The position numbers were made by a program, and so were the translations under genes. The notes beneath the pieces were generated by a model. That model saw only the letters and a program-made list of their open reading frames with translations. It made no database searches and was not told the origin of the DNA. This document shows positions 4,865-9,643 of a stretch of DNA of 64,000 nt, piece after piece. Source of the stretch: Burkholderiales bacterium (GTDB lineage: Bacteria > Pseudomonadota > Gammaproteobacteria > Burkholderiales > Ga0077523); NCBI GenBank assembly GCA_019745565.1, contig JAIESW010000005.1, positions 235 to 64,234 on the forward strand. Reading direction: 5' to 3'. Every line of letters begins with the position of its first letter. Within the stretch, counting starts at the first letter, position 1.

Positions 4865-4954
4865 GGAGAGGTGGCAGAGTGGTCTATTGCACCGGTCTTG
4901 AAAACCGGCAGGGGCGCAAGTCTCTCGTGGGTTCGAATCCCACCCTCTCCGCCA
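4865..4954 (+). tRNA. tRNA-Ser (anticodon UGA), CCA encoded
   Basis: Acceptor stem GGAGAGG/CCTCTCC. Anticodon arm ccggt-ctTGAaa-accgg. Long variable arm and T-arm GGTTCGAATCC. Ends GCCA. Confidence 0.9.
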
Positions 4955-5504: not shown

Positions 5505-5846
5505 TCAGGCCTGGCGCGGCAGCGAAGTCGCGCGGCGTGCGCTGTTGCGGCGGGGCGACGAGCGCGAACTGGAAGCCTGCGACTTCAGCGTGCGATAGAG
5601 CGTGGGCCGGGAGCTTTTCAGATAGGAGATGACCTCGAAATCTCCACGGGTCATGCGGCCGATGTCGATCTTGTCGATGTGCACCAGGCGCAGGAGCTGC
5701 TGCACCGGCTTCGGCATGCTGCGGCCGCTCTCGTAACGGGAACCGCCGCTCTGGGTCACGCCGATCATGCCCCAGAACTCCTGCTGGTTGAGGCCGAGCT
5801 TCTGTCGGATGTCGCGCGGATTGGGAATCTTGTCTGAGATCTTCAT
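5505..5846 (-). CDS. Small helix-turn-helix DNA-binding protein (XRE-like) with Ser/Arg-rich tail
   Basis: I take the internal ATG at 5846 of track ORF 5505-6143, because the upstream 99 codons are Arg-rich off-pattern sequence overlapping the MoxJ-like gene. MKISDKIPNPRDIRQKLGLNQQEFWGMIGVTQSGGSRYESGR is a classic HTH. Confidence 0.65.
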   Translation of the reverse strand: MKISDKIPNPRDIRQKLGLNQQEFWGMIGVTQSGGSRYESGRSMPKPVQQLLRLVHIDKIDIGRMTRGDFEVISYLKSSRPTLYRTLKSQASSSRSSPRRNSARRATSLPRQA

Positions 5847-6004: not shown

Positions 6005-6781
6005 TCATGGTTTGCGGTGCTCGATGCCGTATCTGGCGTAGATCGCCTTCACGGTGCCGTCGGCGATCAATTGCTCGAGAGCCTTGTTGAGTGCCGTCAC
6101 CAGCGCCTCGTCCCCGCGGCGTACGCCCACGGCAAGCGTCCATTCCATGTCGGGCTCGCCGTCGTAGGCGTGCACGAACCGGAGGCTGTGCCCCGGATGG
6201 TTGTGGATGTAGTACTGGATCGTGTTGACCGAGATGGCTGCTGCCGCGAGTTCGCCCTTCTCCAGGTCCTCCAGCATGTCGTCTTCAAAGGCATACGGCG
6301 AAGTCACCCAGCCGCGCTTGTTGAGGATCATGCTCGCCGTGGAGTTCAGCATGACGCCCATCTTCCGGCCCGGGATCACCTTGGCGAAGTCGACGATGTC
6401 GTCCTGGCCCTGCGCGATCGCGAGGGCCACGCCGCCCTTGGCATAGGGCATCGACAGTTTGACCTTGGAGTCGTCCTCGAGGCCCTGGACGATGAAGTCC
6501 ATCTTGAGGTCGCAGTCGACCACGCGCGCCCGATAGGTCGGAATGATCCACTTCGCCTCGAACCCCACGCCCAGTTGCCTGGCGATGGCCTGGCCCAGAT
6601 CCACCTGGAATCCGTGCACGTCACCGGAGCGCTTGGCGTAGGGCAACGCGTCCGGGTTGGCGCAGATCGACAGGATGTTGCGCTCCTTGATTTCGTGCAG
6701 AGGGCGCGCGAGGGACAGGCCGCTCGCGCACAGAAGGGCGCTCGCTGCTGCGAGCGCCAGGAGCCTCGCGACCGGCCTCAC
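6005..6781 (-). CDS. Quinoprotein-dehydrogenase-associated periplasmic solute-binding protein (MoxJ/XoxJ-like, SBP family 3)
   Basis: 258 aa with a signal peptide (LLALAAASALLCASG). SBP_bac_3-like body. GTG start overlaps the cytochrome stop as GTGA. Sits last in a PQQ-DH / cyt c / MoxJ order, as in xoxFGJ. Confidence 0.75.
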   Translation of the reverse strand: MRPVARLLALAAASALLCASGLSLARPLHEIKERNILSICANPDALPYAKRSGDVHGFQVDLGQAIARQLGVGFEAKWIIPTYRARVVDCDLKMDFIVQGLEDDSKVKLSMPYAKGGVALAIAQGQDDIVDFAKVIPGRKMGVMLNSTASMILNKRGWVTSPYAFEDDMLEDLEKGELAAAAISVNTIQYYIHNHPGHSLRFVHAYDGEPDMEWTLAVGVRRGDEALVTALNKALEQLIADGTVKAIYARYGIEHRKP

Positions 6782-7146
6782 GGTTCCTGATCCGGGCGGA
6801 GCGAGCGGATGAACTTCACCATGTCGCGGATCTGATCGTCGGTGAACGCTCCGCCGAAGGCTGCCATGCGGCCGGCCTTGCCATTCTTGATACGGTTGAA
6901 CAGGTATTCATCCGAGTTCGTGTTGTTCATGAGCTGCGGGCCCTTGCCGGCCTTCCGGCCATAGTCCTCGTGACAGAAGCTGCAGATGTTGCGGAAGGTG
7001 TTCTTGGCATTGAAATCGGATGCGCCGGCGGCCGCTACGGGCGCCTTTTCGTCGGCTGCAGGCGACACCGGAATGGCGGCGAAGAAGAGCAGGGCGGCCA
7101 GACAGAGGATGGGGCGGAACACGGATAGTTTCACTTTCAGATCCAA
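6778..7146 (-). CDS. Small periplasmic c-type cytochrome (candidate electron acceptor of the PQQ dehydrogenase)
   Basis: 122 aa. Signal peptide, single heme motif CSFCH, and distal Met candidate in GKAGRMAAFGG. Confidence 0.8.
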   Translation of the reverse strand: MDLKVKLSVFRPILCLAALLFFAAIPVSPAADEKAPVAAAGASDFNAKNTFRNICSFCHEDYGRKAGKGPQLMNNTNSDEYLFNRIKNGKAGRMAAFGGAFTDDQIRDMVKFIRSLRPDQEP

Positions 7147-7183
7147 TCGATGGATAGGACAAATGCGTCAACGGCTATGAGAC

Positions 7184-7216
7184 AAAAAGCGGGGACCGAA
7201 GTCCCCGCTTTTTTTT
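7184..7216. terminator. Bidirectional-looking rho-independent hairpin between the PQQ-DH and cytochrome genes
   Basis: aaaaa-gcggggac-cgaa-gtccccgc-tttttttt. Read on the minus strand it follows the dehydrogenase stop (7259) and ends in TTTTTG, so it could act as an attenuating intra-cluster terminator. Confidence 0.55.
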
Positions 7217-7258
7217 ACTGCCTGGTCGGCTGCTCCGCTCCCTCGCGGGAGCAGGCGG

Positions 7259-8992
7259 TCAATCCAGGGCGAACACCTTCAGGATGCCGCCGTCGGTCGG
7301 CATGCTCGAGTAGGGCTCGCCCCACAGGTCGCCGTAACCGTCGGTCACGAGGCTGCCCTTGCCCACTTCCACGGCGACGTACTGCTTGCCCTTCGCCATG
7401 TAGGTGATGATGCCGCCGTCGTGCAGGTTGCCGTTGTTGTGGCGCCACAGCACTTTGCCGGTGCTCGCGTCGACCGCGGACAGGTGGCCGTCGGCTTCCG
7501 GGATGAACAGCAAATTGCCGCCCGTGGACAGCAGTGAGCCGTGCGGGATGCCGTTCTTGAAGTCCATCGCCCACTTCACCTTGCCGGTGATCGGATCACG
7601 CGCACGCACGTGGCCCCAGGCCTTGTCGCTGCCCGGACCGTGCATGGTGAAGTTGGCACCGATGTTGAGCTGAGCCATCGGCTCCAGCACCGGGGTCGTC
7701 TTCACGATCTCGAGATCCATGCACCACTCGTAGCCCACGCGATAGTACAGACCGGTCTTCGGGTTGTAGGTACCCGCGTTCCAGCTGTAGCCGCCGGCGA
7801 TGGCCGGGCACAGGTTGGTGTGCTTGCCCTCGACCATGTCGCGGCGGCCGATCAGCTCGCCGGTCTTGGGATCGACACCCTTCACGAAGTTGATGTTGTC
7901 CACGCCGGCGTAGACGTTCTGCACCTTGCCGCCGCGGTCGTACACGAACACGTGGCCGCCCTTGTTCGGGTGCACCACGTACTTCTTGCCGTCGCGCTCG
8001 AGGAACACGAACTCACCCATGGACGAGTCGAAGTCCCACGCGTCGTGCGGCAGTTCCTGGTGGTAGTTCTTGAGCTCGCCCGTATCCGGGTTGAGCAGGA
8101 TCACCGCTGTCGTGTACAGGTTGGTGCCGGGCCGAGGTCCCTTCGTCTGCCATTCGGGGCCAGCCCAGTCGTACAGCGGCGCCGGATTGGCCGTGCCCCA
8201 CCAGACCGTGTCGGTTTCCGGATCGTAGGCACCCGCCATCCAGCCGCCGCCGCCACCGGTCTTCCACGAGTCGCCACCCCAGGTGTCCCGACGATCCGAA
8301 GGCGTACCTTCGTTGCCGCCGGAGGTGTTGAACGTCCAGACCAGTTGTCCGCTCTTGGCTTCGACGCCGAAGATCGGGCCGCGGCCGGGCCATTCGCCGC
8401 CTTGAGCGCCGATGATGACCTTGTCCTTCACGAACAGGGGCGCACCGGTGAAGCCCACGGTGAGTTTCTTCGAGTCGACCAGCTTGGTCTCCCAGTTGAG
8501 CTTGCCGGTCTTCATGTCGACGGCGACGAGCTTGCCGTCGAGCGTGCCCATGTAGACGTTGCCGTTGCCGAGCGCGACACCGCGGTTGTAGGGCGAGTGG
8601 GTCTGCTTCGCGACCAGGTCCTCGTCGAGCTTCTGCTTGTAGATCCACAGCACGGCGCCGGTGGCACCGTCCAGCGCGTAGAGCTGGTTGTAGGCGCTGG
8701 TGTAGTACAGCACGCCGTCGGCGGCGAGCGGGAAGCTCTGCAGGCCGCGGGTGGCGCGGGAAGGCATGTGCGACCACGCTTCCTTCAGGCCCTTCACGTT
8801 CTTGCTGTTGATCTGGTCGAGCGCACTGTAGTGCCACGACTTGAACGAACCGTGGTAGGTGGGCCAGTTGGCCGGATCGGCCTTCAGGATGCTCTCGTGC
8901 GTGACGTCGGCGCTGGCCGTTGCAGACCAGACGACGCCGGTGACGGCGGCAAATAGCACGCCCTTCACCGTGAGGCGATTTTCAAGTTTCAT
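7259..8992 (-). CDS. PQQ-dependent dehydrogenase, methanol/ethanol family (soluble, signal peptide)
   Basis: 577 aa. Signal peptide ...WSATASA. Repeated propeller W-motifs (LYALDGATGAVLW, LVAVDMKTGKLNW, LSAVDASTGKVLW), GAQGGEWPGRG, GGGGGWMAGAYDPETD, and PHDAWDFDSS around the catalytic Asp. Confidence 0.9.
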   Translation of the reverse strand: MKLENRLTVKGVLFAAVTGVVWSATASADVTHESILKADPANWPTYHGSFKSWHYSALDQINSKNVKGLKEAWSHMPSRATRGLQSFPLAADGVLYYTSAYNQLYALDGATGAVLWIYKQKLDEDLVAKQTHSPYNRGVALGNGNVYMGTLDGKLVAVDMKTGKLNWETKLVDSKKLTVGFTGAPLFVKDKVIIGAQGGEWPGRGPIFGVEAKSGQLVWTFNTSGGNEGTPSDRRDTWGGDSWKTGGGGGWMAGAYDPETDTVWWGTANPAPLYDWAGPEWQTKGPRPGTNLYTTAVILLNPDTGELKNYHQELPHDAWDFDSSMGEFVFLERDGKKYVVHPNKGGHVFVYDRGGKVQNVYAGVDNINFVKGVDPKTGELIGRRDMVEGKHTNLCPAIAGGYSWNAGTYNPKTGLYYRVGYEWCMDLEIVKTTPVLEPMAQLNIGANFTMHGPGSDKAWGHVRARDPITGKVKWAMDFKNGIPHGSLLSTGGNLLFIPEADGHLSAVDASTGKVLWRHNNGNLHDGGIITYMAKGKQYVAVEVGKGSLVTDGYGDLWGEPYSSMPTDGGILKVFALD

Positions 8993-9153
8993 TCGACATT
9001 CCTCTCGAAGTTGCGGGCGGTAGATTCAAGCGAGTTAGCGCCCAACAAGGTGGTCACCGGTTCGTTGCCGGAGCCTTCTGCCGCGCCGTCGGTGCGTTGT
9101 TCTGTCCCACGCATCGCAGCGAGCGGCTGGACTATATCAGGAGGAATTCGGTG

Positions 9154-9171
9154 TGTCACAAGATGTCACAA
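9154..9171. promoter_or_regulatory. Direct repeat TGTCACAA-GA-TGTCACAA upstream of the PQQ-DH gene
   Basis: Two identical 8-mers with 10-bp periodicity lie about 165 bp upstream of the dehydrogenase start. This geometry is typical of response-regulator half-sites. Confidence 0.25.
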
Positions 9172-9283: not shown

Positions 9284-9361
<78 letters not shown>

Positions 9362-9396
9362 GATCGCGCGACCGGCGCGCAACCGAGCGCTCGAGT

Positions 9397-9473
9397 GTGC
9401 CCGTAGCTCAATTGGATAGAGCACCGGCCTTCTAAGCCGGGGGTTGCGGGTTCGATTCCTGCCGGGCACGCCA
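9397..9473 (+). tRNA. tRNA-Arg (anticodon UCU), CCA encoded
   Basis: GTGCCCG/CGGGCAC acceptor stem. Anticodon arm ccggc-ctTCTaa-gccgg. T-arm GGTTCGATTCC. Confidence 0.9.
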
Positions 9474-9566
9474 TTCCTTGATTTGAAAGCGGGAATTCTC
9501 CATACTCCGCCCCCTTCTCACGGCGGTCGGCGATGGTGAATTCCACCTCGGACGTCCGCCGTCGAT

Positions 9567-9643
9567 GGTGGCTGTAGCTCAGCTGGTAGAGTCCCGGATT
9601 GTGATTCCGGTCGTCGTGGGTTCGAGTCCCATCAGCCACCCCA
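9567..9643 (+). tRNA. tRNA-His (anticodon GUG) with G-1, CCA encoded
   Basis: An extra 5' G pairs with discriminator C. Anticodon arm ccgga-ttGTGat-tccgg. T-arm GGTTCGAGTCC. Confidence 0.9.

Follow-up and report, generated by a model that had tools for sequence, protein, structure and literature searches.

A predicted lanthanide-type PQQ dehydrogenase clade of Burkholderiales that lacks the vicinal Cys-Cys ring and carries its own cytochrome c

The window analysed here is a 64,000-nucleotide stretch of a Burkholderiales bacterium genome (assembly GCA_019745565.1, contig JAIESW010000005.1, positions 235 to 64,234 of the forward strand). It contains a three-gene cassette for a pyrroloquinoline quinone (PQQ)-dependent dehydrogenase, a small cytochrome c and a periplasmic binding protein. 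The dehydrogenase has Thr-His at the place of the vicinal Cys-Cys ring and keeps the Asp-x-Asp (DxD) motif of PedH and XoxF. We read it, with a probability of about 0.6, as a periplasmic lanthanide- and PQQ-dependent dehydrogenase of the alcohol or aldehyde type, which belongs to a disulfide-free clade and has its own cytochrome c and a maturation-type binding protein. Its lanthanide dependence is predicted from the sequence. The genes and residues concerned are as follows.

7259-8992, minus strand: PQQ-dependent dehydrogenase of 577 amino acids (PF01011, 196.5 bits), with a Sec-type signal peptide (…SATASA/DV) assigned by inspection
8597-8602, minus strand: codons of Thr131-His132, aligned with the vicinal Cys-Cys ring of MxaF, XoxF, ExaA and PedH
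8186-8395, minus strand: stretch from Glu200 (8393-8395) to Asn269 (8186-8188), the other two predicted metal ligands
8240-8242, minus strand: Trp251, equivalent of the PQQ-stacking Trp
8027-8035, minus strand: Asp320-Phe321-Asp322, the predicted catalytic-base Asp and the lanthanide-marker Asp at +2
7721-7810, minus strand: Cys395 to Cys424, the sole cysteines of the dehydrogenase, aligned with the second Cys pair that MxaF and XoxF have
6778-7146, minus strand: small mono-heme class-I cytochrome c of 122 amino acids with a signal peptide (PF13442, 48.7 bits)
6005-6781, minus strand: periplasmic family-3 solute-binding protein of 258 amino acids (PF00497)

Six reference enzymes were rebuilt from PDB alignments: PedH (6zcv), qhEDH (1kb0), MxaF (4tqo), XoxF5 (6dam), XoxF1 (6oc5) and XoxF2 (4mae). 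They were aligned with MAFFT together with the clade, the paralogues from the same genome and distant representatives. HMMER aligned the dehydrogenase with PedH (6zcv) over its full length (E = 1.8e-77). At the ring, the HMMER columns read AKQTHSPYNRGVAL in the query over RPCCDVINRGVAL in PedH, and at the catalytic Asp they read PHDAWDFDS over PHDGWDFDG. The MAFFT alignment confirmed these columns. It placed Thr131-His132 at the Cys-Cys and D320-F-D322 at the Asp-x-Asp of PedH and XoxF, and the alignment controls were as expected (WDYA in MxaF, WDYT in qhEDH, WD(Y/F)D in XoxF and PedH). The original prediction, made from the DNA letters, had claimed that the enzyme lacks adjacent cysteines and carries a lanthanide-type Asp pair. 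Both methods bore out the missing pair, and the DFD proved positionally homologous to the Asp pair of PedH and XoxF1/2/5, with MxaF and qhEDH differing as controls. Glu200, Trp251, Asn269 and Asp320 fell in the reference columns, and Arg137 was also kept in the alignment. Lys344 stands at the position of an Arg in MxaF, as it does in qhEDH.

C395 (NLCPAIAGG) and C424 (YEWCMDL) are the only cysteines among the 577 residues of the dehydrogenase. Their columns match the second pair of cysteines in MxaF and XoxF (…CPAALG… and …HVCMDYE…), a pair that PedH does not have. In MxaF the second pair is a structural disulfide. By analogy, Cys395 and Cys424 probably form a structural disulfide as well. A truncated enzyme or pseudogene was ruled out, as the reading frame is intact and orthologues with 99-66% identity are full length.

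The 3D structure of the dehydrogenase was modeled using AlphaFold 2 with 53 clade members as input. The mean predicted local distance difference test score was 81.7, and the predicted template modelling (TM) score was 0.87. A Foldseek search of the PDB returned PedH (6zcw) first, with TM scores of 0.83/0.85 and 34% identity, followed by XoxF, MxaF, qhEDH, ExaA and PsADH with TM scores of 0.81-0.86. As modeled, the dehydrogenase is an eight-bladed PQQ propeller.

The residue pattern is conserved among relatives. A protein search found thousands of them, and we analyzed the 120 nearest homologue clusters, which were 68-99% identical and came mostly from metagenome-assembled genomes (MAGs) of Burkholderiales or 'Betaproteobacteria'. 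None of the 120 had a CC dipeptide, all 120 had DxD, and 117 had the motif QTH[S/G]PYNRG; we refer to this group as the QTH clade. In addition, we collected the best 80 of 517 stretches encoding a relative in species-representative (GTDB) genomes. All 80 lacked the CC and kept DxD, and 79 had QTH. T131, H132, E200, W251, N269, D320, D322, C395 and C424 were invariant in 53 clade members. By these comparisons, the joint loss of the ring and retention of DxD in this protein is not due to chance.

The clade is common among Burkholderiales of soil and freshwater that have not been cultured. Of 301 genomes sampled from the order, 23, in 7 of 142 genera, had an orthologue (E <= 1e-230). Two uncultured Burkholderiales/Betaproteobacteria MAGs are near-identical to the genome of the window, with 99% and 98% identity at the dehydrogenase gene. 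Cultured carriers are Ramlibacter alkalitolerans KACC 19305 and the alphaproteobacterium Vineibacter terrae CC-CFT640.

The three genes also stay together. Ramlibacter and three unrelated MAG neighbourhoods have them side by side, with different genes on the flanks. Among the 74 loci that had at least 1.3 kb of downstream flank, the cytochrome gene followed the dehydrogenase gene in 68, and both the cytochrome and the binding protein genes were present in 58. Five loci had neither partner; these included second copies in genomes with a cassette-bearing copy (L043/L081, L068/L051 and L112/L057). As the cassette is kept across differing neighbourhoods, the dehydrogenase, the cytochrome and the binding protein form a functional unit, and the different neighbourhoods suggest that the cassette moves as a unit.

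A maximum-likelihood tree of 74 sequences was built with IQ-TREE (LG+G4), with support from the Shimodaira-Hasegawa-like approximate likelihood-ratio test (SH-aLRT). The QTH clade had 99% support. It adjoined a clade of the same-genome paralogue C44 and the representative P0121, and the two lay within a 14-row group (100%) inside an 18-row branch (99% SH-aLRT). The canonical Cys-Cys was absent from all 18 members of the branch that were sampled. PedH, qhEDH, MxaF and XoxF1/2/5 were on the other side of the tree, and the query was inside neither the XoxF nor the ExaF/PedH clade. Forcing PedH into the 18-row branch was not rejected by an approximately unbiased test (p = 0.13), so the deep placement of this branch is tentative.

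The enzyme had been assigned to a poorly characterised clade, and this description held up. No PDB structure exceeded about 34% identity, with PedH the best at 33-34%. The score for TIGR03075, the methanol/ethanol family, was 428.5, below the cut-off of 480.05. Source annotations of the relatives gave generic names only, and searches of the literature brought up no specific report of a Burkholderiales lanthanide clade without the disulfide. No member of the clade appears to have been characterised so far. Among 1.84 billion 50%-identity representatives searched, 1,013 matched at E <= 1e-30, and the nearest full-length ones were only 52%, 46% and 44% identical.

The missing ring had been presented as exceptional, a view that the family at large did not support. 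In the 74-sequence set the ring was absent from 35 sequences, 31 of which kept DxD, and its state changed at least seven times on the tree. DxD itself was found in 65 of the 74 diverse family members, and most PQQ alcohol dehydrogenases (ADHs) have been described as carrying lanthanide-type residues (PMC10848612; bioRxiv 10.64898/2026.07.10.737718). The co-occurrence is also in print: quinoproteins of marine heterotrophic Thaumarchaeota, of unknown function, have no Cys-Cys and keep DYD/DXD (PMC7300363; repeated in the review PMC11845868). The combination of ring loss and DxD is real yet less unusual than it appears, and it is not rare.

The cytochrome has one heme motif, CSFCH, at residues 55-59, and the Met in …GRMAAF… is a candidate sixth heme ligand. 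The open reading frame was listed from TTG 7146. A start at GTG 7134 gives a cleaner signal peptide (MKLSVFRPILCLAALLFFAAIPVSPAA/DE) and may be the true start. The protein scored 21.1 bits against TIGR03872 (MoxG; the cL/XoxG family), with a cut-off of 147.8, and the assignment to the cL/XoxG class was rejected. Its PDB matches were weak and included c6, CcoP and cytochrome cL (E = 0.055). Homologues of this cytochrome adjoin the CC-containing same-genome paralogues C66 (E = 4e-9) and C93 (E = 4e-5), and another adjoins paralogue C44, in which the CC is relocated (E = 2e-14). The XoxG of the same genome has only about 136 amino acids. The small size of the cytochrome had been taken as a peculiarity; given the small cytochromes beside C66 and C93 and the size of XoxG, it is no mark of an altered electron route.

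The gene order had been likened to that of xoxFGJ, and this likeness is real. The order mirrors equally the pedE-pedF-pedG module of P. putida, in which a dehydrogenase, a cytochrome c and an orphan binding protein also follow one another, and which was described along with a proposed role of XoxJ/MxaJ (PMC12997753). The binding protein here is likewise an orphan, with no ABC permease or ATPase gene alongside. It had been called MoxJ-like, a name that fits its gene position and, only loosely, its sequence: it scored 59.9 against TIGR03871 (cut-off 212) and 35.6 against TIGR03870 (cut-off 258), and its match to XoxJ (6onp) had E = 7.5e-6. By analogy of position, we infer that it is a counterpart of XoxJ, MxaJ and PedG.

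The rest of the genome was searched for PQQ and lanthanide functions. The search for pqq genes proposed with the original prediction was successful. PqqC (366 bits) and PqqE (515 bits) are encoded adjacently and the PqqA peptide is also present, indicating that the genome makes PQQ. An XoxF5-type enzyme (C89:119949-121985; 956 bits to 6dam) is followed by XoxG, a CxxCH cytochrome. This true xoxFGJ lies elsewhere in the genome, outside the window, and as the genome encodes XoxF5, lanthanides are presumably supplied to the periplasm. A SoxYZ-like 'quinoprotein relay' gene is at C89:124744-125424, beside xoxFGJ.

The 4.9-Mb genome encodes 11 full-length PQQ dehydrogenase paralogues, with DxD in ten and the ring absent from five. 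The paralogue closest to the query, C44:13818-15821 (locus L007; 725 bits), lacks the canonical Cys-Cys (…GTFYNPYNRG…). It has a new CC pair 3-4 residues past the metal-binding Glu (GGELAGCCGP), and its own small cytochrome c is adjacent. The same relocated motif occurs in P0121, and P0123 has GMADCC. Paralogue C78:61484-63247 (465 bits to the query) keeps the Asn, the Asp and the marker Asp and has lost the Glu (…GSTQGGIPARG…) and the Cys-Cys; its site may be degenerate or differently metallated. PDB searches with paralogue C95 and the representative P0150 returned PedH on top for both.

Of the known systems, PedH/ExaF (6zcv, 6zcw) is the best match in sequence and structure. It shares with the query the Glu/Asn/Asp/Asp ligand set and a Gln at the position of MxaF Glu55. 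It differs in sharing only 33-34% identity, in having Cys-Cys where the query has Thr-His, in lacking the second Cys pair, and in having Arg, Asn and Trp where the query has Lys344, Ser403 and His484; the two also lie on separate tree branches. XoxF (6dam, 6oc5, 4mae) shares the fold (TM 0.82-0.84), DxD, the second Cys pair and the F-G-J-like gene order. However, the query is ring-free and lies outside the XoxF/MxaF clade, its cytochrome is not of the cL/XoxG class, and its binding protein is not a MoxJ. PsADH (4cvb), the soluble eight-bladed PQQ alcohol dehydrogenase of Pseudogluconobacter saccharoketogenes, matched the fold with TM 0.83/0.85; its sequence is less similar (E = 1.1e-55) and matched in two stretches. 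Rozeboom et al. (2015) reportedly found no vicinal disulfide in PsADH and electron transfer to cytochrome c, and the enzyme is said to be a calcium enzyme with different metal ligands. The Thaumarchaeota quinoproteins, compared by description only, resemble the query in lacking Cys-Cys and keeping the Asp motif. Unlike it, they belong to another domain of life, and many are predicted to be membrane-anchored (PMC7300363; PMC11845868).

The Asp at +2 distinguishes PedH from PedE (PMC5487730) and is essential for the function of lanthanide-dependent ADHs (bioRxiv 10.1101/2020.02.25.964783). The main rival to the lanthanide reading is that the enzyme is calcium-dependent or metal-promiscuous, with a +2 Asp that would be ancestral or structural and not a lanthanide determinant. 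The clade shows no variation at the four ligands, marker Asp included, the characterised calcium enzymes in the alignment have Ala or Thr at +2, and the bona fide XoxF5 in the genome makes lanthanides in the periplasm a reasonable presumption; we therefore hold calcium dependence to be unlikely. It draws its strength from the near-default status of DxD, both in the diverse family members and in the same-genome paralogues, which may lead the motif to over-predict lanthanide use. Several further points tell against lanthanide dependence or against other parts of our interpretation. The XoxF and ExaF/PedH clades are the only ones for which the DxD marker has been validated (PMC5487730; bioRxiv 10.1101/2020.02.25.964783), and the metal, cofactor and substrate of the QTH clade are all predictions. 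The TIGR03075 score is below threshold; of the ten paralogues encoded alongside the query, five score above that cut-off. Several peripheral PQQ contacts are changed with respect to MxaF and PedH (Asn to Ser403 and Trp to His484). Another, residue 545 (7358-7360), is Lys here and Trp in 90% of the clade (…TGWGSLV…); the Lys is common to the nearest relatives, P0001 and P0002, whereas PedH and qhEDH share a conserved Trp at this position. A regular-expression scan of the genome found no lanmodulin-like EF hands, a scan too crude to establish absence. Transfer from a ring-free enzyme to a cytochrome is not self-evident, given the role of the ring in ExaA described below, and a hairpin that we place in the proposed mechanism is not present in all relatives, since the gap between the dehydrogenase and cytochrome genes is only 6 nucleotides at the orthologous Ramlibacter locus.

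Mennenga (2009), quoted in both PMC5487730 and PMC12997753, reported the Cys-Cys ring of ExaA to be essential for efficient transfer to cytochrome c550, which makes the absence of the ring mechanistically interesting. Ring loss might have come with a re-routed electron exit, to an acceptor or along a path unlike those of ring-containing quinoproteins. Thr131-His132 is invariant in place of the ring, and the relocated CC of the sister clade (GGEL[A/S]GCC) suggests selection near PQQ. A 'quinoprotein-associated SoxYZ-like carrier' (TIGR04557) accompanies ring-containing ADHs (PMC12997753). In this genome, contig C89 has such a gene next to xoxFGJ and C65 has another, both away from the window and this cassette, a placement that in this single genome hints at a special status of the ring-free cassette. 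The acceptor is nevertheless still an adjacent small class-I cytochrome c, homologous to those of the CC-containing C66 and C93, and PsADH reportedly also serves a cytochrome c with no ring. The altered exit route of the original prediction accordingly gains no support from the cytochrome and stays an inference, and we consider a re-routed exit possible, if doubtful. A more specific proposal is that Thr131-His132 would stand in for the ring, stacking against PQQ and controlling the passage of single electrons to the small cytochrome, that the sister clade would have re-invented a Cys-Cys beside the metal-binding Glu, and that the QTH clade would be a distinct lanthanide-PQQ family; this is speculative and, in our judgement, fairly unlikely. 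The idea of a non-catalytic or cofactor-less ('empty') quinoprotein homologue is very improbable. It would explain a secondary match to TIGR04528 (acido-empty-quinoprotein group A), which at 289 bits is far under the cut-off of 650, and it could point to ligand losses on the same deep branch, in P0123 (GMA/AAP/WGFD) and in paralogue C78 with its missing Glu. The catalytic and metal residues of the QTH clade are invariant, however, a dedicated cytochrome c is co-conserved, and PQQ biosynthesis genes are present.

Under the lanthanide reading, an alcohol or aldehyde substrate would be oxidised at a Ln3+-PQQ centre with Asp320 as the base. The adjacent cytochrome c would then re-oxidise PQQH2 in two one-electron steps and pass the electrons to the respiratory chain with no vicinal disulfide involved. 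The binding protein may insert the cofactor or the metal, like XoxJ, MxaJ or PedG, and a terminator hairpin would keep the level of the dehydrogenase above that of the two downstream genes.

Two further elements flank the dehydrogenase gene.

7184-7256, minus strand: two stem-loops 3' of the dehydrogenase stop codon, with stems at 7232-7256 and 7184-7213
9131-9171, minus strand: promoter-like site GTGACA-17-TATAGT with an overlapping direct repeat, a consensus match only

The folding energy of the stem-loop region was -48.4 kcal/mol (z = -4.39 relative to shuffled sequences). The stem at 7232-7256 comes first, and the hairpin at 7184-7213, AAAAAAAAGCGGGGAC-UUCG-GUCCCCGCUUUUU, follows. The latter has a GC stem between an A-tract and a U-tract and thus resembles an intrinsic terminator or attenuator. 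Further downstream, the GTG start of the binding-protein gene overlaps the TGA stop of the cytochrome gene (GTGA), an arrangement of translational coupling. The open reading frames, the two non-adjacent cysteines, the hairpin and the GTGA coupling were all present as first described.

The promoter-like site precedes the dehydrogenase start by about 140-180 nucleotides. Its -35 hexamer is overlapped by an exact direct repeat, TTGTGACA-N2-TTGTGACA at 9154-9171, which might bind a response regulator. The orthologous dehydrogenase gene of Ramlibacter has an OmpR-type two-component pair lying divergently upstream. The binding-protein gene is followed after about 160 nucleotides by a small gene on its strand (5505-5846, minus), whose 113-aa product is an RsaL-like helix-turn-helix protein (PF22495, 89 bits) that has a tail rich in Arg and Ser; this gene was not at the relatives' loci that were inspected. 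There are tRNA genes on both sides of the cassette: tRNA-Pro(TGG), tRNA-Arg(TCT) and tRNA-His(GTG) at 9284-9643, upstream and divergent, and tRNA-Ser(TGA) at 4865-4954, downstream.

Ring loss together with DxD turns up often in metagenomes and has been described from other lineages, so its novelty is limited and it will not surprise specialists. The function of the Cys-Cys ring has been debated for decades, and a large, conserved, ring-free clade with a dedicated cytochrome c bears on that question. Together with a sister clade in which the CC is relocated, it would make the question directly testable and, if the reading is true, be a natural experiment, for which the cultured carriers R. alkalitolerans and V. 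terrae offer experimental material. If the clade is lanthanide-dependent, an abundant group of enzymes of soil and freshwater Burkholderiales would join the lanthanide-using proteins, with ten DxD paralogues in this one genome.

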